Virus record (IMG/VR): IMGVR_UViG_3300006162_000015
Coordinates: 1-58,564 of that record
Origin: a virus
Lineage: Duplodnaviria > Caudoviricetes
Strand: one strand, 5' to 3'
Length of the DNA: 58,564 nt
The notes under the pieces are model-generated. The model saw only the letters and a program-made list of their open reading frames with translations. It had not been told where the DNA came from and ran no database searches. The translations under genes and the position numbers were made by a program. Every line of letters begins with the position of its first letter. Within the stretch, counting starts at the first letter, position 1. Below, in pieces: positions 1-36,813 of this stretch.

Positions 1-217
1 GTAATATAGTGTGTAATTCAAAACGGCCAACCTTGTATTTATTGTCGTAAAAACATAAAAGGCCTCTTATTCTATTATCAGAATGCCTATGGTCAACACT
101 AAGGTTATTTTTAAACGCCGATCTAGGCTTACCGCAGATACCGCATTTATTGCCGTGCTTATCTATAAGCTCTTGTCTAAGCGCGTCGATCTGTTTTTTG
201 GTATAAAGCTTACTCAA
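1..217 (-). CDS. Endonuclease VII-like nuclease (probable Holliday junction resolvase), 5' part; continues across the window ends
   Basis: Hand translation from TTG at 217: MSKLYTKKQIDALRQELIDKHGNKCGICGKPRSAFKNNLSVDHRHSDNRIRGLLCFY, with CxxC, DHxH and RGLLC motifs. Not in the ORF track because it runs off the edge. Confidence 0.8.
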   Translation of the reverse strand, partial: MSKLYTKKQIDALRQELIDKHGNKCGICGKPRSAFKNNLSVDHRHSDNRIRGLLCFYDNKYKVGRFELHTIL

Positions 218-452
218 TGATGCCATATATAATTCTTTCTAATTTTGTTGCGTCTCTTTTAATTTTAAAATAATCTTTAATGTCGTCATCGTCAGCAATC
301 CAGTGGTCGTTTTGATCTTTAATAGTCATAAGAATATAATTTATTCCGTCAAAAAATTTTATCAATGCAAGTTCTTTTTTCTTCATGTCAATATCAACAG
401 GAGAAGTAACTTTTGCTATTATAATCTTACCTATTAATTTCGCTTCGTCCAT
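210..452 (-). CDS. Small hypothetical protein with C-terminal TKLERIIY tag
   Basis: ORF track; packed between neighbours; ends DATKLERIIYGIIE. Confidence 0.7.
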   Translation of the reverse strand: MDEAKLIGKIIIAKVTSPVDIDMKKKELALIKFFDGINYILMTIKDQNDHWIADDDDIKDYFKIKRDATKLERIIYGIIE

Positions 453-1989
453 CTACAAGCTCTACTAATACTTTGTTTTCTATCATTGCTTTGACCGTTT
501 CGCTGTGTTCTACAATATATACGGAATCATAGTCTAAAGCAACTGTTTCTAGCATTTGTATTGCTTTCATTTTATTGCTGTCGTCTAGACCGTCTAAAGC
601 CTCGTCTAAGAATATCTGCCTAAAGTCTAATGCGTGGTGGGTGGCGACTGATTTCATTACCGCAATACCAAAGCATAACTTTAGCATTTGACGCTGACCT
701 TTAGATAGCTGAGTATAGGCGGCCTCGTTACCGTCTTTATTTATTGATACTTCTAATTTATCTGAGTCTGTAATCGTAAACCCCACAGAGATTTCGCCTT
801 CGAAATGCTCTCTTAATAGACGCGTAGTCTCTGTTTCTAGGCTTTCAACAGTATTTTCGATTAGTTCTGATCTAAAGGTATTTACAGCGTCGGCTAAAAT
901 CTCTAGATTTAGTTTCTCATCTAATACTTTTGCCTGTTCGGTTTCTATAGACGCGGCGGTAGCAAGTTCTTTATCGATGTCTTTAGATAGCTTTATAATA
1001 GTACTGGTATGAGGGTTTGTCTGTGCTTTAAAGTCTTGGATTTGGGTTTGATAAGTATTTTCTGAGTGTTGTAGTTCGTCTAGCCTGTTTATTAGACGCT
1101 CTAGCTCTTCGTTGTGGTGTTTTTGCTTTAATAACTCGTTTTCTAATTCTGCGCGTTTTAGATTTTCGCTAACCTTACCGCATTCTTTACACTTAGTGGT
1201 TTTAGGTAGAGCCTTTACCTTATTTTCATCTACATTAAATTGTATTTTTTCTAAACCTTCTATTTGGGCAGCTAAACTGTTTATTTGGGCTGCTTTAACA
1301 ATCTCAAAATTATCGGCTTTAGATTGTAATGCTGATATACGGTTATTGATCTCATGCGCCCATGAATCGTTTTTCTGCTGTATATTTTCTAATACCGACT
1401 TTAAAGAATCGATTTTAGCGTTTACTTTAGTATGGTTTATATCTAATGATTCTATCTGGGATTTAACTGTCTTAGTTTCTGTTTTTATTCGTTCTTGTAG
1501 TCTTATTGGTAGGCTAAGGTCTACAAGGCTTTCTGTAATAGCACGTCTGTTTTTAGCATTGGTAGTAAAAAACTGGGCTGTTTGGCTAAACTCATGAAAA
1601 TACGCGCCTGCAAGATATAATTCAGGCGTCATGCCTAAAAGCTCGTTTATTTGCTTCTGAGTGTCTGTAAGGTCTTTACCTCTAAATTGTTTAAGTCCTT
1701 CTGTATGCTTATAATAATATAAATCATTAGTTTTGCCTCTAATCCTTACTATTTCTGCGTTTTCTACGCATATAGTTACTTTAGTAACGCCGCCGTTCCA
1801 GGATTTTACCTCGTCTGCTTTACCGCCTTTAGAAGTTATGCCAAATAACCCCCAAGGTATTACGTCGCACAGCGTGCTTTTACCAGCGCCTGTAGGCCCG
1901 TGTATAAGAGTTACGCCCTGGCTGTCAAACGAGTACTCAAGTTTTTCATAAGAGGCAAAATTCTCGGCATATACGCTAATTACCTTCAT
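427..1989 (-). CDS. SbcC/Rad50 (T4 gp46-like) ATPase subunit of recombination nuclease
   Basis: Walker A GPTGAGKS, central coiled coil with CKEC zinc hook, signature LSKGQ, Walker B/D-loop FLDEALDGLD; start at MKVISV overlapping the upstream stop. Confidence 0.92.
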   Translation of the reverse strand: MKVISVYAENFASYEKLEYSFDSQGVTLIHGPTGAGKSTLCDVIPWGLFGITSKGGKADEVKSWNGGVTKVTICVENAEIVRIRGKTNDLYYYKHTEGLKQFRGKDLTDTQKQINELLGMTPELYLAGAYFHEFSQTAQFFTTNAKNRRAITESLVDLSLPIRLQERIKTETKTVKSQIESLDINHTKVNAKIDSLKSVLENIQQKNDSWAHEINNRISALQSKADNFEIVKAAQINSLAAQIEGLEKIQFNVDENKVKALPKTTKCKECGKVSENLKRAELENELLKQKHHNEELERLINRLDELQHSENTYQTQIQDFKAQTNPHTSTIIKLSKDIDKELATAASIETEQAKVLDEKLNLEILADAVNTFRSELIENTVESLETETTRLLREHFEGEISVGFTITDSDKLEVSINKDGNEAAYTQLSKGQRQMLKLCFGIAVMKSVATHHALDFRQIFLDEALDGLDDSNKMKAIQMLETVALDYDSVYIVEHSETVKAMIENKVLVELVDGRSEINR

Positions 1990-2987
1990 AAACCCTTCCA
2001 CTTGTCTTTAAGGGCTAGTTTACGCTCTTCACTAACGTCTGTCAAACCGTCTATAATTGCGTCTAATTGATCTGGCTTGGTTTTATGTATGGTTTTAACC
2101 TTACTTACTTCCGATGTAGTCGGTATTAAGTCTAGTTTAAAATTTTTAAGCGGGTATAGCATTTTAGATACATGATCTTTAGTTTTATTGGCAAGCTGCT
2201 CTTTCGAGCCTTTCATTTTAACCCATACTATGTCTCGGTCGCGCACGTCTTCTAAGGGTATTTTTCCTGTAATTTGCCACGCATCGTCGTTTGATTGCTC
2301 TACGTTTAATATAACATGTCTTCTAAGGTTAGTCGATACAAACTCAAGGCTTCCGTCGTCGTATAAGATTTGAAAGCCTTTTGCAGGATCGTTAGCCTCT
2401 GCAAATGTAAGCGTATAAGGGTTACCAACATAGTCCCATTGGCCGCTTTTAGGAAGTTTAATAGTCTGGCGGGTATGGTAGTGCCCGCTGATTATGCGGT
2501 GACCGGCTACGTCTTTAATTAATACCGCGCTTTTGTCTTGTATGTATTCGCCTGAATTAGATCCTGAAAGGCCTTGATGTACAATGTTTATGGCGTCTTT
2601 TATTAGACATTTTTTGAAAAATTTAGGATCGTGCTGGTAGGGTATAAAATTAATGCCTAGATCTGAATAGTATTTAGGCTGATCTACTATTACTGCAATA
2701 CCGCCAAAAAAATTAAGGGCGTGTTCTTGGCTTTTTTCGTTTACTTTGTCGTGGTTGCCTACTAGTACCCATGGTTGCATGTCTGCCAAGGCAAAAGTCT
2801 CTATCATTGCGTTCATGCATTCGGCGCGAATATTAGCTTTTGAATCATGCGTATCGCCACATACAATTAAGGGTACTTTAAAGTTATTAGACAATACTAT
2901 GGCTCTACGTACAGCCTCATCGGCTACATGCATAGTCTTTAAATTGTAGTGGATATCAGATATCAGAATCGCTTTCGGTTTCTTCAC
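1986..2987 (-). CDS. SbcD/Mre11 (T4 gp47-like) metallophosphoesterase nuclease subunit
   Basis: SDIH, CGDTHD, VGNHD, HQG and SGHYH calcineurin-like motifs; adjacent to the Rad50-like gene. Confidence 0.9.
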   Translation of the reverse strand: MKKPKAILISDIHYNLKTMHVADEAVRRAIVLSNNFKVPLIVCGDTHDSKANIRAECMNAMIETFALADMQPWVLVGNHDKVNEKSQEHALNFFGGIAVIVDQPKYYSDLGINFIPYQHDPKFFKKCLIKDAINIVHQGLSGSNSGEYIQDKSAVLIKDVAGHRIISGHYHTRQTIKLPKSGQWDYVGNPYTLTFAEANDPAKGFQILYDDGSLEFVSTNLRRHVILNVEQSNDDAWQITGKIPLEDVRDRDIVWVKMKGSKEQLANKTKDHVSKMLYPLKNFKLDLIPTTSEVSKVKTIHKTKPDQLDAIIDGLTDVSEERKLALKDKWKGL

Positions 2988-3873: not shown

Positions 3874-3891
3874 TTTTTAAATCCTTCCATA

Positions 3892-4281: not shown

Positions 4282-4288
4282 TTTTACC

Positions 4289-4723: not shown

Positions 4724-4801
4724 ATAGCCTCCGTTAGAATTGCCCAGGCGGTCAGGGGGTGCTGCCGCCCAGGCTTATGCGCATCAGGATGGAATTACAG
4801 G

Positions 4802-5035
4802 TTAAACGTCTTTTTTATAAATGTCAAGGTTATTGTTTCGAATTTCTTCGTAAAGCTTGTCTTTAAGGATGTACTCGGCTTGCTTTACAAGACTATCAAA
4901 ATCTTTAGGCATTATGTAGTCTTGACCGTAATGTTTAGTAATATCTACTGCGGTTAGGCGTAGTCTTTCTTTTGCTATAGAGTATTCTTCAAATAACTTT
5001 TGGAGTAGCTGTATTTGTGATTTAAGGTTTTTCAT
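4802..5035 (-). CDS. Hypothetical protein
   Basis: ORF track, in operon orientation. Confidence 0.6.
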   Translation of the reverse strand: MKNLKSQIQLLQKLFEEYSIAKERLRLTAVDITKHYGQDYIMPKDFDSLVKQAEYILKDKLYEEIRNNNLDIYKKDV

Positions 5036-5126
5036 CTACCCCCCATATAATTCTTTCTAATTTAGAAGCTTTACGTATTTTTTTTAATTCCGCAATTAAT
5101 GAATCTTTCGTGTACGTTTTCATCAT
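5022..5126 (-). pseudogene. 34 aa chimeric mini-ORF: probable restriction endonuclease N-terminus fused to the phage LERII tag
   Basis: MMKTYTKDSLIAELKKIR-KASKLERIIWGVDEKP; ATGA-coupled to the MTase stop; the first half resembles, from recall, the start of MvaI/BcnI-family endonucleases. Confidence 0.5.
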
Positions 5127-6247: not shown

Positions 6248-6487
6248 TCATAAATCCTCCGCTTCAAATATTATAAGCTCTAATTCTGTAGTAAGCAACC
6301 TGTCGTAAGGGCTGTCGGCGACTAACCAGCCTTCTTTAATCTCTAAATCTTTAACTACGTTACTAATATACCTATTACGCTTAAACCTACAAAAAATCTC
6401 GTTATCTATGTTAGGCTTGTTATTTAAGACTTTGAAAGCAAAATTAGAATTTTTGTCGTAGCAGACCTCGCCTATCTTTTTATTCAC
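6248..6487 (-). CDS. Small hypothetical protein with degenerate C-terminal tag (TELELIIF)
   Basis: ORF track; ends LLTTELELIIFEAEDL. Confidence 0.6.
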   Translation of the reverse strand: MNKKIGEVCYDKNSNFAFKVLNNKPNIDNEIFCRFKRNRYISNVVKDLEIKEGWLVADSPYDRLLTTELELIIFEAEDL

Positions 6488-6698: not shown

Positions 6699-6714
6699 AA
6701 ACCCTCCTATTTAA

Positions 6715-7025: not shown

Positions 7026-7505
7026 ATGAAACACACTATAATTACTATAAGCCTTTTATTAGCCGCTTGCGGCACGCATTACGACCCAGGGTTTGTCACC
7101 CAGCCTACTGTCTCCGAAAGCCCTGCCACGGCCTCACAATGCCCTTCAGGGGGCATCGTAATAGTAGTAGATAACGGGACGCCTCAAGCTATCTGTAACG
7201 GAATTGCTGGGGCTGTAGGCCAAACAGGTGCTACCGGCCCTCAGGGTCCGCAAGGAAACCCTGGACCTCAAGGCACCCCAGGAGTTGATATAACGCCTAT
7301 TACTTGGGTTCAGTTCTGCGCGCCTACGACGGCATACCCAAATACCTTCTCAGAAGGCGGGTTTTGTATAGCCGGCAACCTTTATGCCGTTTACTCTATT
7401 AACGGTGGGTTTATGACGCTTATACCGCCTGGAGTTTATAGCTCAAACGGCGTAAACTCTACGTGTACGTTTACAGTACAAGCCAATTGCGTGGTTACTC
7501 ACTAA
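7026..7505 (+). CDS. Lipoprotein with collagen-like Gly-X-Y repeat
   Basis: Lipobox LLLAAC; GAVGQTGATGPQGPQGNPGPQGTPG; Cys-rich C-terminal domain. Confidence 0.8.
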   Translation: MKHTIITISLLLAACGTHYDPGFVTQPTVSESPATASQCPSGGIVIVVDNGTPQAICNGIAGAVGQTGATGPQGPQGNPGPQGTPGVDITPITWVQFCAPTTAYPNTFSEGGFCIAGNLYAVYSINGGFMTLIPPGVYSSNGVNSTCTFTVQANCVVTH

Positions 7506-9158: not shown

Positions 9159-9166
9159 GGAGACGC

Positions 9167-25906: not shown

Positions 25907-27456
25907 TAAGAATGTCCGAGCCAGTAAATAGTTACTTTACCTGAGCCGCCGTCTCCGCCTTTGCCGGTAGCGATAGTTAAAACGCTATCTCTAGCTCCGC
26001 CGGAACCTCCGCCGCCAGCACCGCTATTTGCGGCAGCATCACTGCCGGCGCTAGAAGGAGTACCATTAGTGCCGTTTGAACCATTACCCCCTGCAGCAAA
26101 ACCTGAACCGCCGCCTCCGCCTCCGCCAGCGCCGCCGCGACTAGAGTCGGGACCTACGCCGCCTGTACCTGCAGTAGAAACTGAATTGTAATAATTAGTA
26201 GGGCCGCCGCTAGTTCCTGCACTACCATTAGAGCCGCCAGACCCATTTCCGCCGGCGCCGCCAGATCCGCCCAACGAAGTAGAGCCTATGGCATGGTAAA
26301 CTTCTGTTCCTGAATTAGTAACCATAGAGTTTACGATACCGCCGGCGCCTGGGCTTGTTGCCCCGCCAAATACGATATTAACTCCTGTACCTGTAATAGT
26401 AGTATTGCCGCCCGATGAACCTGCATTACCATTTTGGCTTGTAGTTGAAGCCACTGCTGCTCCGCCAGCACCTCCAGCACCTATAGTTACAGTTAATACC
26501 TCTGCAGGAGTAACGGGGACGTATAAAAGAGACGGTACAGAGCCAGAACCTCCGGCACCGCCAGTAGTCCCGTTACCTGTAGTAGTAGCAGCCGCGCCTG
26601 AACCGCCGCCTGCACCGCCGCCACAACCAAGTACTAAAAGAGAATTAACGTTCGAGGGTACAGTAAAAGTCCCGGATGCATTAAACACGGAAGAATTCCA
26701 CTGTAATACGGAAGTAGCAAGCTGTGTTAAACCTACAGTATTATTAATTATTTTTGAAGCGTCTAAAGTATTAGCCGTTACTTTGGCTCCGGTAATTGTA
26801 TTATCAGCAATATTAGTATTAGTTAAATACTGCTGCGTAGTCATATTACCTGAAGAATCTATAAACTGTATGCTGTTAGTTGCAGGTAATGCCGGTAAAT
26901 TAATAGTATAAGCACTAGATATTGCTGAGGGCGGGCTAAGCGTAACACCGTTTGTGGTAGCGGCTACGTTAGGACGAAGCGTTATAGAGCCTATATCAAA
27001 GTTTGCAGGAGTAGTGGGCAAGCTAGACTGGTCTTGAGTCCATATAAAAGTACCGCTGCTGTATGTTTCTCCTGGAATACTAGATGCAACTACGTTGAGG
27101 CTGCCAGACTTGGTTACTTGGATTTGAGTTCCGTTACCGTCTGTAAAATAAAGGTCGCCTGAGCCAGTACCAGAGCCTACAGCAACCGAAAGGCTGCCTG
27201 CAACGCTAGATACGCTAGACGAACTAGTAAAGTAAAAATCTAAAGCCGATACGTTTTCAAGGATGTTTTGGTTTATGTTTAACGTAGCGTTTATATTAAG
27301 GCCGGCAGGCGTTATCTTGACGCCTCTGCCTGGGCTGTGGTCGTGCTGGTCTATAAGACTTAGGCTAGAATTTACGTCAAATGCATAAGTCGGACCGCTT
27401 TCAGTACCCACACCTGGTATTATGAGATTCATCGCGGGCGATATTGTGTTGCTCAT
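25906..27456 (-). CDS. Tail fibre protein with glycine-rich domain
   Basis: IDQHDH N-terminal motif; SGTFTVPSNV...GGGAGGG glycine-rich C-terminal domain. Confidence 0.75.
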   Translation of the reverse strand: MSNTISPAMNLIIPGVGTESGPTYAFDVNSSLSLIDQHDHSPGRGVKITPAGLNINATLNINQNILENVSALDFYFTSSSSVSSVAGSLSVAVGSGTGSGDLYFTDGNGTQIQVTKSGSLNVVASSIPGETYSSGTFIWTQDQSSLPTTPANFDIGSITLRPNVAATTNGVTLSPPSAISSAYTINLPALPATNSIQFIDSSGNMTTQQYLTNTNIADNTITGAKVTANTLDASKIINNTVGLTQLATSVLQWNSSVFNASGTFTVPSNVNSLLVLGCGGGAGGGSGAAATTTGNGTTGGAGGSGSVPSLLYVPVTPAEVLTVTIGAGGAGGAAVASTTSQNGNAGSSGGNTTITGTGVNIVFGGATSPGAGGIVNSMVTNSGTEVYHAIGSTSLGGSGGAGGNGSGGSNGSAGTSGGPTNYYNSVSTAGTGGVGPDSSRGGAGGGGGGGSGFAAGGNGSNGTNGTPSSAGSDAAANSGAGGGGSGGARDSVLTIATGKGGDGGSGKVTIYWLGHS

Positions 27457-28043
27457 TATACAACCTTTTTAAAAGTAAAGCCGCCTGTAGATTTTCGTCT
27501 ACCGCTGCAAACTAATGATATTTTATGAGGTTTAAGTTTTAAAACTTTAGCTGCTTCAACCATAGAATTAAATATTTGGTTTAATTCTACACAAATAATT
27601 TTACACATAGTTGATGGTTTTTTACCTAATCTTGAGTTCCGCAATTTTAGTTTGGATGCTTCTGTATGAATAGGTCCAAATTTGCCATACCTAGGATTTT
27701 TTGGCCCTTTTTTAGAATCAGATGCTTTTTTTAGTGATTCTTCGGACCAAACTCTATTTTTTTGAGCGCCTATTACTCGATTGTAACCGTTAGGGCTAAG
27801 AGTATTATAAAATTGAATAAAATAATCTTCTGCGTCATTTAATTGCGTTTCAGAATAGTATTCGCTTTCGATATAAAAACTAAAATTTTCACAACCATAT
27901 TTAGCTATAGCATGAGAAATTGCAGTTTTTTCTTTGTTACTTTTATGCCGCGACCATCGTTTAAACGGGTTTACAGTTTGGCCTATATATTGTTTGCCAT
28001 TAAGTTTATTTGTAATTTTATATATATAACCTACAAAATACAT
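27456..28043 (-). CDS. Free-standing GIY-YIG homing endonuclease
   Basis: YIYKITNKLNGKQYIGQT, PNGYN, NUMOD3 repeats and NUMOD1-like C-terminus. Confidence 0.92.
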   Translation of the reverse strand: MYFVGYIYKITNKLNGKQYIGQTVNPFKRWSRHKSNKEKTAISHAIAKYGCENFSFYIESEYYSETQLNDAEDYFIQFYNTLSPNGYNRVIGAQKNRVWSEESLKKASDSKKGPKNPRYGKFGPIHTEASKLKLRNSRLGKKPSTMCKIICVELNQIFNSMVEAAKVLKLKPHKISLVCSGRRKSTGGFTFKKVV

Positions 28044-28330: not shown

Positions 28331-29400
28331 TACCAGCCACCTGTTCCGCCGTTGTAGCCTGAACCGAAGCCGCCTGTTCCCCATCCGTTGCCGTTACCAC
28401 TTCTAGTATCGCTGATTCTATCAGGCTGACCAGCGTCTCTGTTGGCTGCAGTTTCTTCTATACGCTGCTTAAGGAATGCAATCTCTTCTGTAAGTTTTGT
28501 AGTATCTGACTCTTCTTTATCTAGCGCGTATTTAGCCGCGCGTACAATTACGTATTCTTGCCAGCCTGATATACCAAAATTAGTAGTATCAGTATCAGCT
28601 AATAACTCAGTCATTCTAGGTATATACCAGATGCGGATGCCTTGGCCTGCGCTTGGGGTTGGTATAAATTCTATGTTATTACCAAGTACGCGGTATTGGA
28701 GGTTAAAAACTCCGTATATAGTACTTGAAGTATTAGGGTATACGAATCTATTCCTATCGATAAAGTTAAACTTATTTATAGTAACATAAGAGTTATTAGC
28801 GTTATTGAGCGCCAAGTCTACGCCCATGATTTTATAAAAGGGCGGCGCTATATACCCAGGCTGTAACGTAATACCGTTATAATAGCTATTAATACCATTA
28901 GGTAAAGCGTATTGAAACGTAACGCCGTCGGCTGTAAATTGGAGTGGCGTTGCAAGAAAATAGTCTTCATAAGTAGTAACTAATAAATCGTATAGCTCAA
29001 ACATTGCTTGACGAACGTAAACTTTCCATTCTGAGTGAGTGACGAATTGACTGTTTACTCGGTCTGCGCGCTGTTGAGCAGCCAATATAAGCTGGCCTAA
29101 AGACATTTCGCCAGAGCCTGCAGCTAAAGCTGATAACGAATTTGTGTACGAGCTAGAGCCTAACGTGTTTCCCGCGCTTACTTGATACCAGTATTGGGTG
29201 CCCTGCGTTACAGCAGAATCTAAATAAGAGGTAGCTAAAGGAGATCCGCTAACTGTGGCTATAGTTGTAAAAGTAACATTATCTAGGCTTCTTTGAACAG
29301 TATAGAAAGTAGCTCCGGGCGATAAGTCCCAAGAAACTAATATTTGTAAATTAGCGGAATCACAAGCAAAATTTTGCGGAATTCCTGGAATGCCCGCCAT
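28330..29400 (-). CDS. Head-tail adaptor / tail tubular protein A with N-terminal fibronectin type III domain
   Basis: VSWD, YTVQRS, SYLDS, YWYQVSAGN Fn3 pattern; then LGQL..AAQQRAD and IEFIPTP adaptor-like domain. Confidence 0.7.
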   Translation of the reverse strand: MAGIPGIPQNFACDSANLQILVSWDLSPGATFYTVQRSLDNVTFTTIATVSGSPLATSYLDSAVTQGTQYWYQVSAGNTLGSSSYTNSLSALAAGSGEMSLGQLILAAQQRADRVNSQFVTHSEWKVYVRQAMFELYDLLVTTYEDYFLATPLQFTADGVTFQYALPNGINSYYNGITLQPGYIAPPFYKIMGVDLALNNANNSYVTINKFNFIDRNRFVYPNTSSTIYGVFNLQYRVLGNNIEFIPTPSAGQGIRIWYIPRMTELLADTDTTNFGISGWQEYVIVRAAKYALDKEESDTTKLTEEIAFLKQRIEETAANRDAGQPDRISDTRSGNGNGWGTGGFGSGYNGGTGGW

Positions 29401-29738
29401 TATCTAATCCTCAATCTAAATTCTTTGTTAACGTATGTTTTTAATCTATGGCAATTAGCACACAAAGTTTGAAGATTAGATGGATCGTCATTAAAATGAT
29501 TGCCGTCTATGTGGTCTACGTCTAATTGGCATTTGTGTATAGCCACAAAACCGCAATTATCGCATTTATCTTTTTTAAATCTGCGATAAGTTTCAGTTTC
29601 TCTTCGTTCTTTTGTTCTAATTTTAATGCAGTCAATACACTCAAAACGTCTACGAGCGCGATTAGAATCAAACCTATAGAAACAATCTATAGGTTTTTCA
29701 ATCTTGCATTTTTTACACGTACGAGTAGGCTCCCTCAT
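29400..29738 (-). CDS. HNH endonuclease
   Basis: CxxC pairs, LDVDHIDGNH, NLQTLCANCH. Confidence 0.9.
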   Translation of the reverse strand: MREPTRTCKKCKIEKPIDCFYRFDSNRARRRFECIDCIKIRTKERRETETYRRFKKDKCDNCGFVAIHKCQLDVDHIDGNHFNDDPSNLQTLCANCHRLKTYVNKEFRLRIR

Positions 29739-29761: not shown

Positions 29762-30466
29762 TTATTCGCCTGCTACTTGAACAGATGAATTGCTTAAGTA
29801 CATTACTAGGCTTATTACTGAGCCGTCTGCAGGGTTTGCAAGTGCGCCAGAGTTGTTACGGCATTGCAAAATGATCTGACCGCCGAAGCCTTGGTTTGCG
29901 CTTACGTTTGGCGAAAGCGTTGTATTAGGGTCGCCAAGTGTCTCGATAGTCATTACTGAAGAGCCTGCGCTAGCTGCAATCTCTACTGCTGCTGAGCCGC
30001 CGATAGTGCCTGATGCTGTAGGCACAAAACTAACGCCGATTGCAGGTGTAATTCCTTTAGGAAGGCCTACTGCTTGCCATTGTGCAAGTGTTGCAGTACC
30101 TAGGCTTACGATTGTTACAGGAACGTTAGCTGTAGTAGAAGTAAGCGGCGTGCCAGATACAGGCGATACGATTGAGTTAAAGCCTGAAAAACTTCGGTTA
30201 AAGTTGTCTTGGAGTTGTACGATGATAGTGCCGGCGCTAGGATTGGGGTTTAAAGGCTGGACGTTAGGGCTAGACGGGTTAGCGTTGCCTTTACCTGGGG
30301 TTGCAGAAGTGTGCATAAACACGTTCTGAACCATTGGGCCTTTAAGGTTACGAATACCTAAGCCGTTACCGTTAGCTGAATCGACTACGAAATTGCAGTC
30401 AATCATTACGGGTGTAGTGTGTGGGATGTAGATTCTTCCGCCGTTGGCGAAATTACGATTTGCCAT
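29762..30466 (-). CDS. Virion structural protein (decoration-like)
   Basis: 234 aa beta-rich; heads the tail operon; RBS gagg; preceded by a candidate late promoter. Confidence 0.6.
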   Translation of the reverse strand: MANRNFANGGRIYIPHTTPVMIDCNFVVDSANGNGLGIRNLKGPMVQNVFMHTSATPGKGNANPSSPNVQPLNPNPSAGTIIVQLQDNFNRSFSGFNSIVSPVSGTPLTSTTANVPVTIVSLGTATLAQWQAVGLPKGITPAIGVSFVPTASGTIGGSAAVEIAASAGSSVMTIETLGDPNTTLSPNVSANQGFGGQIILQCRNNSGALANPADGSVISLVMYLSNSSVQVAGE

Positions 30467-30600
30467 GAGTTACCTCTTTTTGCCACGTTATGAGCGTAGA
30501 GGCTAAGGCCGCGCTCTCACCAGGTTGCTGTGGCTAGCTTCCAGGGAAGGAGGTGAGGTAATCTCAAGTCCTAACCTAGACGCTTAGTCAGAGGTAACTA
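30467..30600 (-). promoter_or_regulatory. Structured 5' leader and late-promoter motif copy 2
   Basis: CTGACTAAGCGTCTAGGTTA at 30572-30591; nested stems GCCAC/GTGGC and GAGCG/CGCTC; (G)TTACCTC complementary to the RBS region GAGGTAAC. Confidence 0.45.
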
Positions 30601-30701
30601 ATCTAACTAACTGATATGATTAGATAATATAATTGCTATGCCTATTAACGCTGATAATGCAGATAACGTTAAGTAAAGGACTTGGTCAAATGTAATTCTC
30701 A

Positions 30702-30893
30702 TTAGTGGCCCTCCAGGTTAATAAGTGTTTTATCAAATACTATATTTGCAGTCTTCAAGTCTAAAAAGCTAGAATACGTAAAATCCTGCATATCTGCCAT
30801 GGCATTTTTGTACTTTACTACAAATCTGCCATCTTCGTCTTTCTCAAGGATTAATTCAAAAATCTTGTTTTCTATTGATTTAATTCTTGTCAT
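30702..30893 (-). CDS. Hypothetical protein
   Basis: ORF track; ATGA coupling. Confidence 0.6.
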   Translation of the reverse strand: MTRIKSIENKIFELILEKDEDGRFVVKYKNAMADMQDFTYSSFLDLKTANIVFDKTLINLEGH

Positions 30894-31102
30894 AGATCAC
30901 CTGTATTAATCATTTCGTTTATAATAGCCGAGACTTGCTGAGGCCCGTAAGTATTGATTAGATTAGTCAAGTGTTGCGTAATTGCAGTCACGTTATCGCG
31001 GTAGAAATGCTTGCTGCGCGTAACATTGCCTTTAGGCTGTGCAAGTTCTCGTCTCTCTGCTAATTTAAGTACTAACTCTGTAAACTGTTTATTATCGTAC
31101 AT
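30890..31102 (-). CDS. Hypothetical protein
   Basis: ORF track; RBS aggggg. Confidence 0.6.
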   Translation of the reverse strand: MYDNKQFTELVLKLAERRELAQPKGNVTRSKHFYRDNVTAITQHLTNLINTYGPQQVSAIINEMINTGDL

Positions 31103-31114
31103 ATAAACCCCCTA

Positions 31115-31249
31115 TTAGTTAATTAAAATTAAAAAGCCTTTAGGATGCATAGATTTCGCAATGCTTAAGGCTTGGTTATTGTTTTTAGCGTCTACTCGTA
31201 CTATATAAGTTACTTTTTCGGTTAATACTTCAAATATATACGTTTTCAT
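31115..31249 (-). CDS. 44 aa hypothetical protein
   Basis: MKTYIFEVLTEKVTYIVRVDAKNNNQALSIAK; RBS aggag; below the ORF-track cutoff. Confidence 0.55.
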   Translation of the reverse strand: MKTYIFEVLTEKVTYIVRVDAKNNNQALSIAKSMHPKGFLILIN

Positions 31250-31250
31250 A

Positions 31251-31451
31251 TTACTCTCCTACTATTTTATAGTTAGGTAGCCATTTAAGTTTTTCTTCTC
31301 GATCTGTATTGTCCCAAAGCACAAATGCTTCTATTGTCTCTAATTGGGTTTCTATTACTTTTGATACTCGGCCATATGAGTTATTGACCGTATCATATAC
31401 TCTATCGCCGTTTTTAAGGTCAAATACTGTCTGTCCTGTCTGTGTTTTCAT
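31251..31451 (-). CDS. Small SH3/KOW-like hypothetical protein
   Basis: LKNGDRVYD...YGRVSKV...VLWDN; RBS aggagg. Confidence 0.65.
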   Translation of the reverse strand: MKTQTGQTVFDLKNGDRVYDTVNNSYGRVSKVIETQLETIEAFVLWDNTDREEKLKWLPNYKIVGE

Positions 31452-31471
31452 ATCGCCTCCTGTTATAATAC

Positions 31472-31498
31472 TTATCGGAGGGTTTTACCAGGACTTTA
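31472..31498 (-). promoter_or_regulatory. Sigma-28 (FliA)-type promoter
   Basis: Minus strand TAAA-N15-TCCGATAA upstream of RBS aggagg. Confidence 0.7.
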
Positions 31499-31583
31499 GC
31501 TTTATTTAAAGTTTTTCTATTATTTTGAGACTTAACTACTAATAATGAGGGTTTAGTGGTATTCTGTAATAAATGGAGGATAT

Positions 31584-31808
31584 ATGGATGATGAACGGTA
31601 TTTACCAGGTCTTTTATTGCGCGCTACGGACCCTCTTAGTCTTTACCCTGGTATTAGGGTATATGATAAAGGAAGCCATCGTACTGGCGAGATTATTAAA
31701 ATCGAGACTAACGGACGCGGATTACCGGACGTTCTTGTGGTTTTTGATAACTCTGACCGCCCTGTCAATAGCTTAGATTACCCAGGCTTAGTTATAATCG
31801 AGGATTAA
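31584..31808 (+). CDS. Small SH3/KOW-like hypothetical protein
   Basis: RBS ggagga; GIRVYD...TGEIIKI...VVFDN resembles 31251-31451. Confidence 0.6.
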   Translation: MDDERYLPGLLLRATDPLSLYPGIRVYDKGSHRTGEIIKIETNGRGLPDVLVVFDNSDRPVNSLDYPGLVIIED

Positions 31809-32044
31809 TGGGCATTAAAGTAGGCGATTTAGTAAAAGCTATTGAAGACGTTAATTCTGAAATATTTAAGGATAAAGTTTATCCTGTTTTAGAAATTAAT
31901 GAGAGGTTTGGTAGAGCTACCTTTATATACGTTTCAGAACAAGAAGGGTTTAAGCGCAAAGGATGGTATTCTTATAGATTTAAAAAATTTAGAGAAATGA
32001 CTACATTAGAAAAAATAGTGTACGGGATTAACGATGGAGACTAA
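31808..32044 (+). CDS. SH3-like protein with C-terminal TTLEKIVY tag
   Basis: IKVGDLV N-terminus; ends MTTLEKIVYGINDGD. Confidence 0.7.
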   Translation: MGIKVGDLVKAIEDVNSEIFKDKVYPVLEINERFGRATFIYVSEQEGFKRKGWYSYRFKKFREMTTLEKIVYGINDGD

Positions 32045-32279
32045 TATAGCTCTTTTTACGTTATTGGCTATAGCGTCTGCCCAAAACCATGGGCAGGCGA
32101 CCTCTAAGTCTTTAGACGCTTATTTGCGATATACCGGGGTAGATAAGCAAATCGACGTCATTAATAACAATGCTAAGAACATGGTACCTGAAGAGGTTAA
32201 GTTTTATTTGGCACCTGGTATATTCATAGGTAAGACTATAATCGACCGTAAAATCGTAATACAATGGACTTTTAAATGA
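32034..32279 (+). CDS. Hypothetical protein, possible signal peptide
   Basis: IALFTLLAIASAQ N-terminus; coupled to neighbours. Confidence 0.55.
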   Translation: METNIALFTLLAIASAQNHGQATSKSLDAYLRYTGVDKQIDVINNNAKNMVPEEVKFYLAPGIFIGKTIIDRKIVIQWTFK

Positions 32280-32491
32280 AAGAATTTAAAGTAGGCGATA
32301 GAGTATTAGTAGTGGATTGGGACATCGGCGAGCCCTATTGGAACGGCCCCGGTAGAATTGTCTATATTATTAATGATAATATTCTTGTAGTAAATACGGA
32401 TACAGGTAAACAAGGCGGGTTTGATGCGCAAAACGTGCGTCATTATTCTGAAACAAGATTAGAGAAAATCATATACAACATTGAGGGCTAA
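32276..32491 (+). CDS. SH3-like protein with C-terminal TRLEKIIY tag
   Basis: FKVGDRV N-terminus; ends ETRLEKIIYNIEG. Confidence 0.7.
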   Translation: MKEFKVGDRVLVVDWDIGEPYWNGPGRIVYIINDNILVVNTDTGKQGGFDAQNVRHYSETRLEKIIYNIEG

Positions 32492-32880
32492 TGAAATTCA
32501 AGGTAGGCGATGTAGTCGCCTGGGAATTCGACAGAATTCCGATTAGATGCTATAAAATAGAAAAAAGATATGGAATGGTATACTGTAAACACCCTATTTG
32601 GGGCGCTATAGGGTTTAGCGAAAACGAGCTTATTCTATATAACAGTATTACGCTAATAGAGAAGATTATTTATGACGTTCCAGAAACCGCAGAAATCGTC
32701 CCGTCTCGATGGCAGTCGCTTGTGACGTACCTACGAGACATTTATCACGTACGCAATTTTTATTTCTTTTTGATACGATTCCGACTCTACTACCTTTACC
32801 GGAGAATCCGTCGTAGGTGCCGACGACGGTTATACGTTTATCTATGCAGGCTGGGTAAACTGTGCAAATTTCTTCCGTAA
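32491..32880 (+). CDS. SH3-like protein with TLIEKIIY tag and a tail running antisense into the subtilase gene
   Basis: FKVGDVV; tag at about aa 53-60; the remainder overlaps 32666-33295 on the opposite strand. Confidence 0.6.
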   Translation: MKFKVGDVVAWEFDRIPIRCYKIEKRYGMVYCKHPIWGAIGFSENELILYNSITLIEKIIYDVPETAEIVPSRWQSLVTYLRDIYHVRNFYFFLIRFRLYYLYRRIRRRCRRRLYVYLCRLGKLCKFLP

Positions 32881-33295
32881 GCTTATCACCATCGTTACCC
32901 GCCGCCGCAAATACGATTACGCCTTGGTCTAATAACTTTTTTATATATTTAGTCTCTGGAGCGTATTCTAATCGGCCTGCAAAACTGAGATTTAAAACGT
33001 CTATATGCATTTTAGTCAATAGTTCTAATGCTTTAACATACATATCGTAATTAAATGTAGGCGTAAACACAGATATTGGTATTAAGCAATAATCTGAATT
33101 TTCCGCGTTTTTTATAATCGCGTCTGCTACATTAGTGCCGTGATACTCGTATCTAGGGCCGTCTGGGAACGGGTTAGAATCTTTACATAGCGGCGCTGAT
33201 ACCTTGGTCCTATCAAGACCAGTGTCTATTATAGCTACTCTAATAGTAGCGTTTGATATCATAGGTAACAGTAAAATACTAAATATCAGTTTCAT
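32666..33295 (-). CDS. Secreted subtilisin-like (S8) serine protease, minimal
   Basis: Signal-peptide-like N-terminus; VAIIDTG, HGTNVA, AAAGN, GTSQAT. Confidence 0.88.
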   Translation of the reverse strand: MKLIFSILLLPMISNATIRVAIIDTGLDRTKVSAPLCKDSNPFPDGPRYEYHGTNVADAIIKNAENSDYCLIPISVFTPTFNYDMYVKALELLTKMHIDVLNLSFAGRLEYAPETKYIKKLLDQGVIVFAAAGNDGDKLTEEICTVYPACIDKRITVVGTYDGFSGKGSRVGIVSKRNKNCVRDKCLVGTSQATAIETGRFLRFLERHK

Positions 33296-33809
33296 AAATT
33301 ATTTTCTCAAGCTTTGACATGTTTTTCAATAATTCTTTTAAATATTCGTAATAGTGTTTCATTTTAGTATCTTTGGCCGCGCTGTAGGCCGCGCTGTTGG
33401 CCGCGCTGGCCGCGATGGCCGCGCTGTAGGCCGCGCTGGCCGCGCTGTTGGCCGCGCTGTGGGCCGCGCTGTAGGCCGCGCTGTAGGCCGCGCTGTTGGC
33501 CGCGCTGGCCGCGCTGTAGGCCGTGCTGGCCGCGCTGTAGGCCGTGCTGTTGGCCGCGCTGTAAACCGCGCTGGCCGCGCTGTTGGCCGCGCTGGCCGCG
33601 CTGTAGGCCGCGACTACTTCTGCGTGTGATGCATTTCCTTTATTATAGCGTTCGACTACGTTTAATGCGTCTGAGCATTGCTTTTTAATATCCTCGTCTT
33701 TAATGTTAGGCAATGTATCTCTAGCACAGTAAACCGCAAAAGCAACGTATATAGGCTTAGGTGTTTTGTTTATTAGTTTTTCTATTTCGTTAAAGTAATC
33801 TTGTGCCAT
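33279..33809 (-). CDS. Imm5-like helical protein with Ala/Ser/Tyr repeat tract and C-terminal SKLEKIIY tag
   Basis: [11 protein letters not shown]...ALNVVERY N-domain; [11 protein letters not shown] repeats; ends [13 protein letters not shown]. Confidence 0.7.
33375..33612. repeat. GC-rich tandem array of 9/12-nt units, in frame
   Basis: About 20 units of GGCCG(C/T)GCT with or without GTA/GTT/GTG; encodes SAA, YSAA, NSAA, HSAA. Confidence 0.95.
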
Positions 33810-34954
33810 TATTTTGCCTCGACGTATATTTTAGAGCCAAACTTGCCTGGAGGTTCTTGCGTACCAAATATAGCCCATAACACCGGGTATTTAGGTTTTT
33901 TAAGGTTTTCAGTATCGTAGCAATCCATATCGCCTAAATATATAAGCGCGTCGACTTGATTTTCTTTTTTATTGAAAAAGTCAAATACAGGCTTGTATGC
34001 AGTACCGCCTCGGCCTTTTACTGAGTACTTTTTGCGAGAGTCGTAGATGTAAGAGTCTTTAATCTCAGCATCAGCTTCTACAACGAATACTTCTGCGTAT
34101 TTAGCGATATTGCCTATCTCACTCATGCACTGGGTTAAAGCCTCGTTACTCATGCTACCTGAAGTATCTATAGCAACGCCTACACGAAGTCTTTCTGTCT
34201 TGATCTGGCCTGGAATGTGTATACCGTATCTGCGGTTTCGTTTCTTTTTAGACGAGTCTATCACAGTCTCCATAGTACGCGCAGCAAAACGCCGTAACTG
34301 TTCGCGCCAGTTTACTAGATTCTCGTTTAAACTAGCTACTAATAACTCGTCGTTATGCGTCATCTTGCCTGCTGCACGCGTACGCTTAGCGGCCTTGTTA
34401 ACGGCTTGACGGACTTTCTCTTTCAAGATCTCTTTATCGCCTTCGCTTTCTGCCCATAAAGAATGATCGTCAAACTCCATAAGATCTTTTGCTTTTTCAT
34501 TGTCTTCAAGGTTAGCCAAATACCATTCCATGGTGTGGCCGTTCTCTAAATCAAAAGTCTTAGGGAATACGCCAAATTCTGGTAGATTAGCCATAATACC
34601 GTTTATCGCGCAGTCCATTGCGATATTAAGGGTTTTATGCTTTTGGTTATTAATAATTTGGTCTTCTATCTTATCAGTCTTGGCATACACCTCGGGGGCT
34701 AATTCTTTAGCCCTTGGTATGTGATTACGTAGTATATGCTCACATTCGTGCTTTAATACGGCTACTCTCTCGTCTACAGTCAAGGCTTCCATGCCTTTCG
34801 GGTTTAAATGAAGCTCTATACCGTCTTTTATGCATACGCCTGCAACTGGTATTTTATCGTCTATTACGCGCTTCATTTGAGATATGATCTCAGCATAGAA
34901 ACGCTCTGATTCAAAAAGCTTTACTATCGTCTGCGAGATCATATCGTTATTCAT
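33809..34954 (-). CDS. DUF2201-like metallopeptidase plus VWA domain protein
   Basis: HExxH (LKHECEH), NIAMDCAIN, MIDAS DTSGS, GRGGT. Confidence 0.88.
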   Translation of the reverse strand: MNNDMISQTIVKLFESERFYAEIISQMKRVIDDKIPVAGVCIKDGIELHLNPKGMEALTVDERVAVLKHECEHILRNHIPRAKELAPEVYAKTDKIEDQIINNQKHKTLNIAMDCAINGIMANLPEFGVFPKTFDLENGHTMEWYLANLEDNEKAKDLMEFDDHSLWAESEGDKEILKEKVRQAVNKAAKRTRAAGKMTHNDELLVASLNENLVNWREQLRRFAARTMETVIDSSKKKRNRRYGIHIPGQIKTERLRVGVAIDTSGSMSNEALTQCMSEIGNIAKYAEVFVVEADAEIKDSYIYDSRKKYSVKGRGGTAYKPVFDFFNKKENQVDALIYLGDMDCYDTENLKKPKYPVLWAIFGTQEPPGKFGSKIYVEAK

Positions 34955-36078
34955 TTTTTACCTTCTTTTTTAGTAACGATGCCTTTAGCAGTCAAAGTCA
35001 ACTCTGCGAGTGGTTTTTCGTATACCGGGTCTATGCTAAAGTCCTTGAAAGTCTCGTTACTAGAGATTACAAGTGCTTTTATAAGTGAAAAACTAATATC
35101 TTTTGGTATTGTAGTAAGAAACCACATAAAGTTACTTTTTTCTGTAGAGTTTAATATTTGCTTTGCTACGTTTTTAGCCTCAAATACTTCTTTTACGTTA
35201 TCGCACGTAATATTTAAGAAGCTAGCCTCTACGTTAACAGGGTTACTCCACTTCTCGATAAGGTCTGGTCGCTCGTGCTTCAAAATCTGATCGCCAGTCA
35301 GCGGTTTATCTACTTCTTTTAAGTACTGCTTATATGCAATAGTACGCTCTAAGCCTATAATACCTGGTATTAAACTATCCATTAAATGCTGTGGCGTTTT
35401 AATCTCGAATAGCCGGCTTAGACGCTCGTAGGCCCTACGGTCTACCTTTACGATCTTATTAAGATCAAACTCTGTCCTAGTAGCTTCAAGGAGGTTTGGT
35501 TGATCTTGAATAAAGCCTACGAGCGTCGGCTCGATTTTACGTTCTTTAGCATATTGAACCCACTCAGATACCGTAGGATCAAGTTTAATATGTACGAATC
35601 TAGCCATTAGCGCCGTCTCGTCTACGTCGGTCGTGAAGTACTCGTCTGTAGGCGGGTTACCTGCTGCGATTACGTAGCAGTTTTTAGGAAGTTTAATAGT
35701 ATGAAACGTCTTGTCTAAGGCTAGGCTAAACATACCATTTAGGATGTCGCGCCGGCCTCGGTTAAACTCGTCTAAAAATATGATCGCACCAGAGTCTGGA
35801 TTGGCATTACAGTAAGATACCACGTCAGTTAACCACTTTGGAGTTGCAAATTCAGTAGACTTTGATCCATCACCGTTGTCTACGAATTCAGCCAATCCTA
35901 ATATATCGCCTAAATCGCTCATAGTACCTAAGTGTAAAGGGAAGAAATGATACCCTTTAGACTTTGCATATTGAGATATAGATTCTGTCTTGCCCACGCC
36001 TGCATGAGACCAGACATATGGCGTTAATTGAGCCTTAAACAAATAATCAAGGCTTTCTTTAAAATCGGTAATGTTCAT
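34951..36078 (-). CDS. MoxR-like AAA+ ATPase
   Basis: HAGVGKT, FLDEFNR, AAGNPP, ALMARF; paired with the VWA gene. Confidence 0.9.
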   Translation of the reverse strand: MNITDFKESLDYLFKAQLTPYVWSHAGVGKTESISQYAKSKGYHFFPLHLGTMSDLGDILGLAEFVDNGDGSKSTEFATPKWLTDVVSYCNANPDSGAIIFLDEFNRGRRDILNGMFSLALDKTFHTIKLPKNCYVIAAGNPPTDEYFTTDVDETALMARFVHIKLDPTVSEWVQYAKERKIEPTLVGFIQDQPNLLEATRTEFDLNKIVKVDRRAYERLSRLFEIKTPQHLMDSLIPGIIGLERTIAYKQYLKEVDKPLTGDQILKHERPDLIEKWSNPVNVEASFLNITCDNVKEVFEAKNVAKQILNSTEKSNFMWFLTTIPKDISFSLIKALVISSNETFKDFSIDPVYEKPLAELTLTAKGIVTKKEGKK

Positions 36079-36104
36079 TTTAACTCCTTTGGTTAGTTAG
36101 GTAT

Positions 36105-36139
36105 ACTATACTATTCGGCAGGAGTTTAGTCAAACTTTA
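36105..36139 (-). promoter_or_regulatory. Sigma-28-type promoter with nested sigma-70 promoter
   Basis: Minus strand TAAA-N16-GCCGAATA interleaved with TTGACT-N17-TATAGT, upstream of the MoxR RBS aaggag. Confidence 0.6.
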
Positions 36140-36141
36140 GA

Positions 36142-36372
36142 TTATTTATGTCTCGTTTCGATATCGTATATGATTTTTTCTAGGCGGGTCAACTGGTGTA
36201 CCGTTCGGTATTTAGACAATGCGTCTTCGTTTTCCCACAGATTAAAATGATTTAGATAGTCTGATATGTCGGAATATACGGATATAAGGTGTCGTCCTGT
36301 AATTTCACCTTGGTAAAAACAAACGTTTCCCTCAGGGCTTATAAGCTTGGTACCTTTAGCGTATTTCATCAT
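36142..36372 (-). CDS. Small protein with C-terminal TRLEKIIY tag
   Basis: Ends LTRLEKIIYDIETRHK. Confidence 0.7.
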   Translation of the reverse strand: MMKYAKGTKLISPEGNVCFYQGEITGRHLISVYSDISDYLNHFNLWENEDALSKYRTVHQLTRLEKIIYDIETRHK

Positions 36373-36578
36373 AAGATATTGTAAATAATTTTTTCAAGTT
36401 TTGAAAGGTTTGATACTAAAATAAAGTCTAATAGTACGTGGTCTCTAGGGCCGTTCCAAGCGTAATCCATGGGCGTTAATGATACTAACGTTATTTGGTC
36501 GCCTTCTATATTTGAGACTATACAGAGTACGTTGTTGCTAGTTCTCATGTAAACCTGATTTAGGCTAATCGATGTCAT
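36369..36578 (-). CDS. Small protein with C-terminal SKLEKIIY tag
   Basis: Ends [12 protein letters not shown]. Confidence 0.7.
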   Translation of the reverse strand: MTSISLNQVYMRTSNNVLCIVSNIEGDQITLVSLTPMDYAWNGPRDHVLLDFILVSNLSKLEKIIYNIL

Positions 36579-36813
36579 ATATTATGCGTTCTAACTGCGT
36601 GTCTAATTTTATCTTTTTACATCCAAGAAACGATTCCAAAAATACAAGGGGCCTAAGATCTTTATAATTTGATTGAAATGTAGAATAAATAATTTTACAT
36701 TCAAACAAGTTATTTTTGTAATCATAATTTAAAAGCTCGTATATTTGAGTATGTCTGTCCACATCGCCTGCCCATTCCCAAATAACAAAATCACCTACTT
36801 TGAATTCAGCCAT
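36565..36813 (-). CDS. SH3-like protein with C-terminal TQLERIIY tag
   Basis: MAEFKVGDFV; ends DTQLERIIYDID. Confidence 0.7.
   Translation of the reverse strand: MAEFKVGDFVIWEWAGDVDRHTQIYELLNYDYKNNLFECKIIYSTFQSNYKDLRPLVFLESFLGCKKIKLDTQLERIIYDID

Follow-up and report, generated by a model that had tools for sequence, protein, structure and literature searches.

Gene organization of the window and the tag sites

The window analyzed here, 58,564 bp in length, is the whole of IMG/VR virus record IMGVR_UViG_3300006162_000015, a linear sequence with an estimated completeness of 100% and a G+C content of 41%. Its source is an uncultured podophage. According to PHROG and Pfam scans, the genome includes (i) genes for SbcCD, a UvsX-like recombinase, a methylase, and a helicase at 0–9 kb; (ii) tail and large virion genes at 10–30 kb; (iii) genes for an SU10-type capsid protein, the portal, and the large terminase at 39–48.6 kb; and (iv) genes for a DNA polymerase and a primase-helicase at 51–55 kb. 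An accessory block (30.7–38 kb) houses a module, located between the major capsid gene and the tail genes, of a MoxR-type AAA+ ATPase and a zincin-like metallopeptidase fused to a von Willebrand factor A (vWA)-like domain, together with 7 of the 10 genes of the window whose products share a short C-terminal peptide, which we designate the tag. Among cultured phages, neither the block 30001–38000 (blastn) nor the capsid protein (tblastn) had a match.

On the minus strand of the block, three tagged genes (36142–36822) are followed by the MoxR gene, the zincin-vWA gene, the gene of a tagged Ala/Ser/Tyr-repeat protein, and an S8 subtilase gene, the last four of which overlap head to tail (Table 1). 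The MoxR and vWA genes overlap by 4 nt, and the stop codon of the vWA gene overlaps the start codon of the repeat-protein gene by 1 nt.

A six-frame scan of the window with the strict pattern [TS]xxE[KRL]I[IV][YWF] returned exactly 10 sites, 3 on the plus strand and 7 on the minus strand, compared with a mean of 0.105 and a maximum of 1 in 200 dinucleotide-preserving shuffles. At 9 of the 10 sites, the stop codon is located 3–7 residues past the aromatic residue of the tag. The initial annotation, made from the sequence alone, had listed the same 10 sites, on both strands and in 9 cases close to the stop codon, and the scan bore out each of these points. All the sites fall within open reading frames (ORFs) that fit the gene map, many of which overlap their neighbors by 1–14 nt; the gene of a 34-aa mini-protein overlaps both neighbors, by 4 and 14 nt.

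Table 1. Tagged genes, the MoxR module, and other features of the window (G001, G002, and G004 are relatives described below)
Position	Strand	Feature	Tag site	Basis
210..452	-	tagged small protein, 80 aa (ATKLERIIYGI, 4 aa before stop)	225-248, TKLERIIY	matrix, 33.4 bits
5022..5126	-	tagged mini-protein, 34 aa, one predicted helix plus tag (ASKLERIIWGV)	5043-5066, SKLERIIW	matrix, 28.4 bits
6248..6487	-	tagged small protein, 79 aa, weakest copy (TTELELIIFEA)	6266-6289, TELELIIF	matrix, 16.6 bits
31584..31808	+	p74, untagged conserved small protein		55-69% identity in G001, G002, G004
31808..32044	+	tagged small protein of β-barrel type, 78 aa (MTTLEKIVYGI)	32000-32023, TTLEKIVY	alignment, matrix
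32034..32279	+	p81, untagged, 81 aa, hydrophobic signal-peptide-like N-terminus (by eye)		
32276..32491	+	tagged small protein, 71 aa, predicted Tudor/SH3-like barrel plus tag helix	32453-32476, TRLEKIIY	AlphaFold2 model
32491..32880	+	tagged protein, frame continues 68 aa past tag	32650-32673, TLIEKIIY	ORF map
32666..33295	-	subtilase (Peptidase_S8), signal-peptide-like N-terminus, last gene of MoxR operon		Pfam, PHROG
33279..33809	-	tagged Imm-5-like Ala/Ser/Tyr-repeat protein, 176 aa, predicted all-helical	33294-33317, SKLEKIIY	model, relatives
33809..34954	-	zincin-like metallopeptidase (DUF2201_N, HExxH) fused to vWA-like DUF2201		Pfam, PHROG
34951..36078	-	MoxR-type AAA+ ATPase (AAA_5, E = 3.6e-5; phrog_1297)		Pfam, PHROG
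36142..36372	-	tagged small protein, 76 aa (LTRLEKIIYDI)	36166-36189, TRLEKIIY	matrix, 36.2 bits
36369..36578	-	tagged small protein, 69 aa	36381-36404, SKLEKIIY	matrix
36565..36822	-	tagged small protein of β-barrel type, 85 aa (DTQLERIIYDI)	36577-36600, TQLERIIY	alignment, matrix
20710-21258, 27456-28043, 38102-38554, 29400-29738, 50472-50945, 57997-58512, 40038-40436, 40684-41406		homing-endonuclease-like genes		

Carriers and their predicted folds

In the window and its close relatives, 26 small carriers could be aligned, but only at three places: an N-terminal FKVGD-like strand, a Trp about 15 residues before the tag, and the tag itself. The mean column identity of this alignment is 20%, and the Glu of the tag is its sole invariant column. 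The AlphaFold2 model of the 71-aa carrier (predicted local distance difference test (pLDDT) score of 79) consists of five strands (residues 1–60) and a helix (residues 61–66, RLEKII) that corresponds to the tag. Residues 1–60 superpose on the Tudor structures 8h43_A (Z 8.8, root mean square deviation (RMSD) of 2.2 Å over 57 aa) and 3pmt (Z 7.9, RMSD of 2.1 Å over 53 aa). A profile of the small carriers from which the tag had been removed, circular in that it was built from the same sequences, re-finds its own members and, weakly, two untagged ORFs, and finds none in tag-free relatives; the 80-aa and 69-aa carriers fit it poorly. Because of the shared layout and the profile matches, most small carriers look like one expanded, fast-diverging family of Tudor/SH3-like barrels, an assignment made by alignment for all but the modeled 71-aa protein.

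The 176-aa carrier has a different predicted architecture. Its model (pLDDT 63.5) is all-helical, and the tag forms a separate helix (residues 166–171) after a three-residue break. The best structural match is chain B of 7jtu, which we take to be the immunity partner of that structure's toxin; the Z score of 14.2 (RMSD of 2.6 Å over 139 aa, model residues 1–161 only) falls within the range in which the tool advises caution for helical proteins. The model also resembles DUF416 (Z 12.6). The protein had no Pfam match at E ≤ 0.01 and matched phrog_18326 at 3.2e-8; among its 98 sequence relatives, many, from E = 3e-8 down, carry Pfam PF21805 (Imm-5-like). We refer to it as Imm-5-like.

The carriers had been described in the initial annotation as unrelated proteins with different N-terminal folds. 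This holds insofar as at least two predicted folds and a 34-residue mini-protein bear the tag, but most of the small carriers appear to be members of one divergent β-barrel family. The layout of these small carriers could also suit a purely structural role, in which the tag is the conserved last helix that stabilizes one divergent paralog family and has no common partner. Most of them share the FKVGD strand, the Trp, and the tag; the tag-less profile re-finds them, although in the circular manner described above; and PWWP domains, in which a C-terminal helix packs onto a barrel, were the top Foldseek matches over 67 columns. We consider this explanation unlikely, because (i) the same 11 residues end the barrel model, the all-helical Imm-5-like family, and the mini-protein; (ii) conservation is much higher in the tag than in the domain that it would stabilize; (iii) the best Tudor superpositions end at residues 60–62, and those that include the tag helix have RMSDs of 5–6 Å; and (iv) the pLDDT scores of the tag (about 68 and 70) are below those of the best-modeled core blocks of both models.

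Database searches placed the small carriers no further. No Pfam or PHROG family was found for 9 of the 10, a homologue search with the 71-aa carrier returned only the query itself, and a Protein Atlas look-up gave merely generic SH3-like folds with feature scores below 0.9. Six module proteins had no match in PADLOC.

The tagged ORF 32491–32880 (plus strand) overlaps the convergent S8 protease gene (minus strand) by 215 nt. It looks as if its stop codon had been lost, or the extension past the tag may be a real tail. A 91-aa "GRAVGRAV" ORF at 33354–33629 (plus strand) was rejected as a gene, as it is the antisense image of the Ala/Ser/Tyr repeat of the 176-aa carrier. Two untagged small proteins, p74 and p81, are encoded among the plus-strand tagged genes. 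The former has 33 invariant columns and was found only in tag-bearing genomes; the latter was present in 4 of 4 other tag-bearing genomes and in 0 of the tag-free ones examined. Together they mark the tagged sub-lineage.

Selection on the peptide

The tag has the 11-residue consensus L-[TS]-[KR]-L-E-[KR]-[IV]-I-[YFW]-[GND]-[IV] and is followed by 2–10 variable residues. The counts among 39 tags are L(21)-[T25/S12]-[K16/R12]-L36-E39-[K22/R15]-[I30/V9]-[I34/V5]-[Y29/F8/W2]-[G17/N10/D8]-[I23/V11], and the acidic residue is kept in 39 of 40 copies. The models predict that the tag is a short, N-capped amphipathic helix. Outside the tag, the carriers have little in common: with the tag cut off, 29 of 40 had no BLAST partner (E < 1e-3), and the links among tag-less carriers were confined to nine repeat proteins and one further pair.

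Within a genome, the codons of identical residues in pairs of tags differ synonymously in 47–60% of cases, and the mean nucleotide identity inside the 33-nt tag is only 58–75%. Leu is encoded by TTA, CTA, CTT, or CTC, and Arg by AGA, CGC, CGA, or AGG. The synonymous variation noted in the initial annotation thus recurs across all 10 sites of the window and points to selection at the peptide level. Since about half of the identical residues use different codons, the tag is kept by purifying selection on the peptide, and the similarity is old and at the peptide level instead of the result of recent gene conversion. The same numbers contradict a DNA or RNA element, such as a promoter, terminator, or recombination site overlapping the gene ends, to which the position of the sites at gene boundaries in tightly packed operons might otherwise point; we regard such an element as next to impossible.

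One of the relatives (G003) has a variant of its own. All 9 of its tags have Val at +3 and Gly at +6, reading V-[IV]-Y-G, whereas the tags of the other four genomes, which read I-[IV]-[YFW]-[GND...], have Val at +3 in 0 of 30 cases and Gly at +6 in 8 of 30. The codons of the G003 tags still differ despite the uniform residues. Such a change, seen in every tag of one genome although the proteins share no other alignable sequence, would be expected of a common reader of the tag.

Relatives and distribution of the tag

A MoxR search of IMG/VR returned 15 loci, four of which came from close relatives of the window phage (G000): G001 (57.8 kb), G002 (54.3 kb), G003 (58.1 kb), and the fragment G004 (12.7 kb), all tagged. 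A position matrix built from 39 tags was used to scan these genomes with a cut-off of 14 bits. It gave 10, 9, 7, 12, and 7 sites in G000 to G004, respectively, 45 in total; the matrix is circular for 39 of the 45, and six are new. Among the new sites are one in an ORF that immediately follows the vWA gene in G004 and one in a mini-ORF flanked by the MoxR and vWA genes in G001. Of all sites, 43 end no more than 12 aa before a stop codon. The motif scan over related genomes that the initial annotation had proposed yielded both C-terminal enrichment and co-occurrence with MoxR/vWA.

Outside this group, the tag is scarce. Six close tag-free relatives, available as whole records, had 0 matrix sites. 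A capsid search gave 164 relatives, 80 of which were kept, and only the G001, G002, and G003 loci contained the tag; thirteen near-complete relatives with capsid proteins 72–88% identical had 0 pattern matches. A DNA pattern of the TKLEKIIYG type matched 8 stretches in IMG/VR, 7 from G001/G003 and 1 due to chance, which encodes Phe where Leu is expected. In metagenome contigs it matched 18 stretches, of which 7 were from G001/G003, 10 were due to chance, and 1 was a true new tag on a 78-aa ORF (L144). A looser regular expression, applied to the 80 capsid loci, found single unrelated C-terminal strings in 6 loci (e.g., VVDLVVF), which we attribute to chance. Therefore, the scans of relatives, capsid loci, and DNA patterns indicate that the tag is real, rare, and sharply lineage-specific.

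A core protein of 125–160 aa (49621–50025 on the minus strand in the window; 1196–1672 in G003), with homologues in all family genomes, ends in a sigma-region-4/LuxR-like helix-turn-helix (HTH). The first helix of this HTH (e.g., SERERIIWEY, SGLEKVIWEY) resembles the tag, and tag-free relatives have it too, so the likeness probably reflects a common capping-box pattern. The internal match at G003 1196–1672, which is this helix in all family members, was excluded from the tag counts.

The MoxR/zincin-vWA module and its linkage with the tag

The zincin-vWA protein matches DUF2201_N at E = 1.8e-17 and DUF2201 at E = 1.5e-13. In an alignment of its homologues (n = 126), the HExxH motif and the residues of the metal ion-dependent adhesion site (MIDAS), D263, S265, S267, T318, and D342, are invariant, and HExxH was present in 116 of 116 picked homologues. 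In a tblastn search, it matched the AR9/PBS1 "zincin-like protease fused to vWA domain" with 27–28% identity over 96% of the query. The MoxR/zincin-vWA pair occurs in 303 cultured phage records, N4-like and AR9-like phages included. Of the four other tag-bearing genomes, three also encode the S8 subtilase.

Seven of the 10 tagged genes of the window are located within 2 kb of the pair, in agreement with the initial annotation, which had placed seven around it. Within 3 kb, the counts are 7 of 10, 3 of 8, 3 of 6, 3 of 9, and 6 of 6 for G000 to G004, respectively. To follow the linkage beyond these genomes, we used a family set of 82 contigs (the 80 capsid loci, G000, and G004; whole records where available). 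MoxR and/or vWA occur on 11 of the 12 contigs that have Imm-5-like genes and on 1 of the 70 that do not, the latter with a distant pair.

In tag-free relatives with MoxR, related tails occur on Imm-5-like paralogs only, and these paralogs are interleaved with the pair. Five paralogs of G011 end in MSELEKLLL[ND]I, and four of G005 end in MDEFERxIRRK, one of these being encoded between the MoxR and vWA genes. The tails LSKLEKILIFG and LTKFEKLVILKL come from two further contigs, and distant Imm-5-like relatives on other contigs have LT/SxFER-type tails. A narrower Imm-5-like alignment and locus search returned known contigs only. Because only Imm-5-like paralogs bear related tails in tag-free relatives, the most parsimonious history is one in which the tail belonged originally to the operon's third, Imm-5-like component.

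At other MoxR/vWA loci (L011–L019, L139, L140, and G015), a de novo search for shared termini found nothing comparable; a cluster of five unrelated, low-complexity tails in G015 was rejected as chance. Two distant phages have arrangements of another kind. Three tandem Trp-rich proteins that are full-length paralogs directly follow a MoxR-like gene in one (L018 12966–13613), and two small proteins with only an L.KDIES.NE tail in common follow a MoxR-like gene in the other (L012 2362–2803).

The tag and its precursor follow MoxR/vWA, and the distribution thus favors MoxR/vWA over capsid or host partners. A docking peptide for a host hub (an adaptor site of a protease or unfoldase, a sliding clamp, or RNA polymerase), which would time or aim host-takeover proteins, has a precedent in C-terminal tethering peptides common to unrelated adaptors, such as the ClpX-binding tail of SspB, and would suit the three carriers of the window that are encoded among recombination and methylase genes, far from MoxR. 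We doubt this explanation, because the thirteen near-complete relatives without the tag would have the same hub, if their hosts are shared, as we assume; because the tag and its precursor track the MoxR/vWA module; and because the motif is followed by a variable number of residues of varying kind, which sets it apart from free-C-terminus degrons.

The location of the module between the major capsid gene and the tail genes would fit a cargo signal that brings small proteins into the capsid for injection, in the manner of encapsulins, and the phage MoxR/peptidase-vWA pair has been proposed, in excerpts of the study by Iyer et al. (PMC7824862), to act in virion assembly and processing. The capsid, portal, and scaffold proteins are 41–92% identical in tag-free relatives, yet tags occur only where MoxR/vWA does, which makes virion loading quite improbable. 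We also considered that tags bind each other or the Imm-5-like protein, so that hetero-oligomers form on an Imm-5-like scaffold. Every tag-bearing genome encodes 1–3 tagged Imm-5-like proteins, and the predicted amphipathic helix would suit such contacts; the link with MoxR/vWA would be left unexplained, and we give this arrangement very little weight.

A proposed docking model for the tag

The vWA domains of MoxR pairs are held, in excerpts of Kaur et al. (2020, PMC7159879), to capture substrate peptides. Given this role and the invariant HExxH and MIDAS residues, and drawing on comparative genomics, we propose that the tag serves as a portable helix through which variable proteins dock and are handed over to the MoxR/vWA-peptidase pair. 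The peptide would have originated as the native C-terminal helix of Imm-5-like proteins in a MoxR/zincin-vWA/Imm-5-like accessory operon, and would later have come to end proteins of the barrel family, and a few unusual mini-proteins, as well in one sub-lineage, represented by the window phage and at least 4 relatives. The tag helix would dock the carriers on the vWA/MoxR machine, its near-invariant Glu being a candidate acidic ligand of the vWA MIDAS, and either the docked protein itself or anything bound by its variable domain would next be remodeled or clipped by the machine. We infer this partner and these steps from the distribution and the published role of vWA domains. In the initial annotation, the tag had been read as a portable docking or addressing peptide on about ten unrelated proteins. 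Portability across at least two predicted folds and the genetic tie to MoxR/vWA agree with the first part, and the second was too strong.

Several observations weigh against the docking proposal. (i) The MoxR/vWA pair does not need tags, because Vibrio phage D505 and Synechococcus phage MinM2, the two cultured phages examined for this, have no tagged and no Imm-5-like genes near it. (ii) Three of the 10 tagged genes of the window, and likewise 3 of 8 in G001, are 27–33 kb from the pair. (iii) On a 37-kb contig that is 75% complete (L056/G022), the exception among the 12 contigs with Imm-5-like genes, two such genes have a SELEKLLL tail but no vWA match was found. (iv) The Fisher's P of 1e-11 for the co-occurrence of Imm-5-like genes and MoxR/vWA is inflated by shared ancestry and fragmentary loci. 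(v) In the fortieth tag copy (G003 258–473), Gln replaces the Glu. (vi) To our knowledge, acidic MIDAS ligands sit in loops and not in helices. (vii) A single carrier of the barrel type was modeled, and the profile that links the small carriers is circular. Because of the pair-less contig, the distant tagged genes, and the many phage pairs without tags, we hold the docking proposal tentatively, at somewhat less than even confidence. Co-folding of the zincin-vWA protein with the tagged 71-aa protein, Mg, and Zn scored 0.00 in two runs without controls, from which nothing was concluded.

The docking proposal can be extended to a modular adaptor platform of the phage, in which the tag would be the constant box and dozens of fast-evolving binders, both Tudor-like barrels and helical repeats resembling immunity proteins, would each catch a different host protein and deliver it to one MoxR/vWA-zincin machine for unfolding or cleavage. 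Such a platform is an improbable, if conceivable, elaboration.

MoxR/vWA-peptidase pairs are common in phages, and this phage group offers a defined set of candidate clients: about 45 proteins from five genomes with one 11-residue peptide and a single near-invariant acidic residue. If the tag is indeed a docking handle, it would be a compact, natural recruiting tag, and the variable barrels and immunity-like proteins would form a catalogue of phage binders with host targets worth finding. If the adaptor platform exists, a function could be assigned to the uncharacterized MoxR/vWA-peptidase pairs of hundreds of cultured phages.

Other features of the window

The window contains eight homing-endonuclease-like genes (3 GIY-YIG, 3 HNH, and 2 endonuclease-VII-like), which is unusually dense for a 58-kb phage, and close relatives are without several of them. 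The major capsid gene is split. Its ORF (38922–39923, minus strand) departs from the sequence of relatives after "...LRVGNADA", and the missing conserved final 24 residues (EIRIGYYGNLICSAPGFNCVVQLSS) are encoded about 216 nt downstream at 38652–38732 (minus strand; region 38652–38955). The RNA between the two parts has many GNRA-type hairpins (minimum free energy z of -2.9), and the insert matched no Rfam intron family. The insert is probably a small, ORF-less self-splicing intron.

Of a DNA methyltransferase, a stop-to-stop frame at 37923–38174 (minus strand) contains no more than the C-terminal portion, with the motifs HPTQKP and FTMGSGST. The GIY-YIG gene 38102–38554 runs with its 3′ end into the upstream end of this frame, and the methylase gene may have been disrupted by this endonuclease. 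A lipoprotein-like ORF at 7026–7505 (plus strand) has a collagen-like Gly-X-Y run (GATGPQGPQGNPGPQGTPG) and a weak PHROG tail-protein match. Beside the tagged triplet, the gene at 36795–37157 (minus strand) encodes a 120-aa protein with a weak match to the uracil-DNA-glycosylase superfamily (E = 2.4e-5, 24.9 bits against a cut-off of 24.3); this product adjoins proteins that resemble immunity proteins of deaminase toxins.

Comparison with known systems

Short terminal peptides that bring unrelated proteins to one reader are known from the SspB-type ClpX-binding tails, the cargo-loading peptides of encapsulins, and the encapsulation peptides of microcompartments. Their motifs and partners differ from those of the tag, and the ClpX N-domain and shell proteins show no link to tag occurrence. 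The distribution of the tag argues against an encapsulin-type cargo-loading peptide, and, compared with a C-terminal degron or ClpX-tethering tail, the tag does not lie at a free carboxylate, as 2–10 variable residues follow it.

In MoxR-class MIDAS recognition, as in Rea1/midasin with Ytm1/Rsa4, CbbQO, and NorQD, an acidic side chain of the client completes the vWA metal site and the AAA+ ring supplies force. The tag likewise keeps one acidic residue (39 of 40 copies). By contrast, those systems have one dedicated client each and no portable tag on many proteins. Literature searches turned up no account of the tag motif, nor of tagged clients of the MoxR/vWA pairs of phages.

The phage MoxR and metallopeptidase-vWA pair (phrog_1297/phrog_1314), for which a role in virion assembly or processing has been inferred (Iyer et al. 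2021, PMC7824862), has the same two genes, the same fusion, and intact HExxH and MIDAS motifs, but the excerpts of that article describe neither a tagged client set nor an Imm-5-like third component.

The nearest parallel is the vWA-MoxR peptide-processing system. Excerpts of Kaur et al. (2020, PMC7159879) describe some vWA-MoxR systems to which two further components are coupled, a zincin peptidase and a small protein that diverges rapidly but has a conserved peptide at its C-terminus. VMAP, iSTAND, FtsH, β-propeller, and radical-SAM/SPASM proteins were absent from the PHROG matches of 66 window proteins and the Pfam matches of 30, although proteins without a hit could still be among them. 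As far as those excerpts go, the two arrangements are alike in (i) an adjacent MoxR/vWA pair with a MIDAS and a zincin peptidase and (ii) small, fast-diverging proteins whose C-terminal peptide is the conserved part. They differ in that (i) the peptidase here forms a fusion with the vWA protein instead of having a gene of its own; (ii) the carriers here are predicted folded domains (barrel, helical repeat), whereas those described there are short precursors of the "FxSxx-COOH" type; (iii) the tag, a predicted helix with a variable tail, belongs to none of the FxSxx, RxD, acidic, and FtsH-associated types; and (iv) the context here is a lytic phage.

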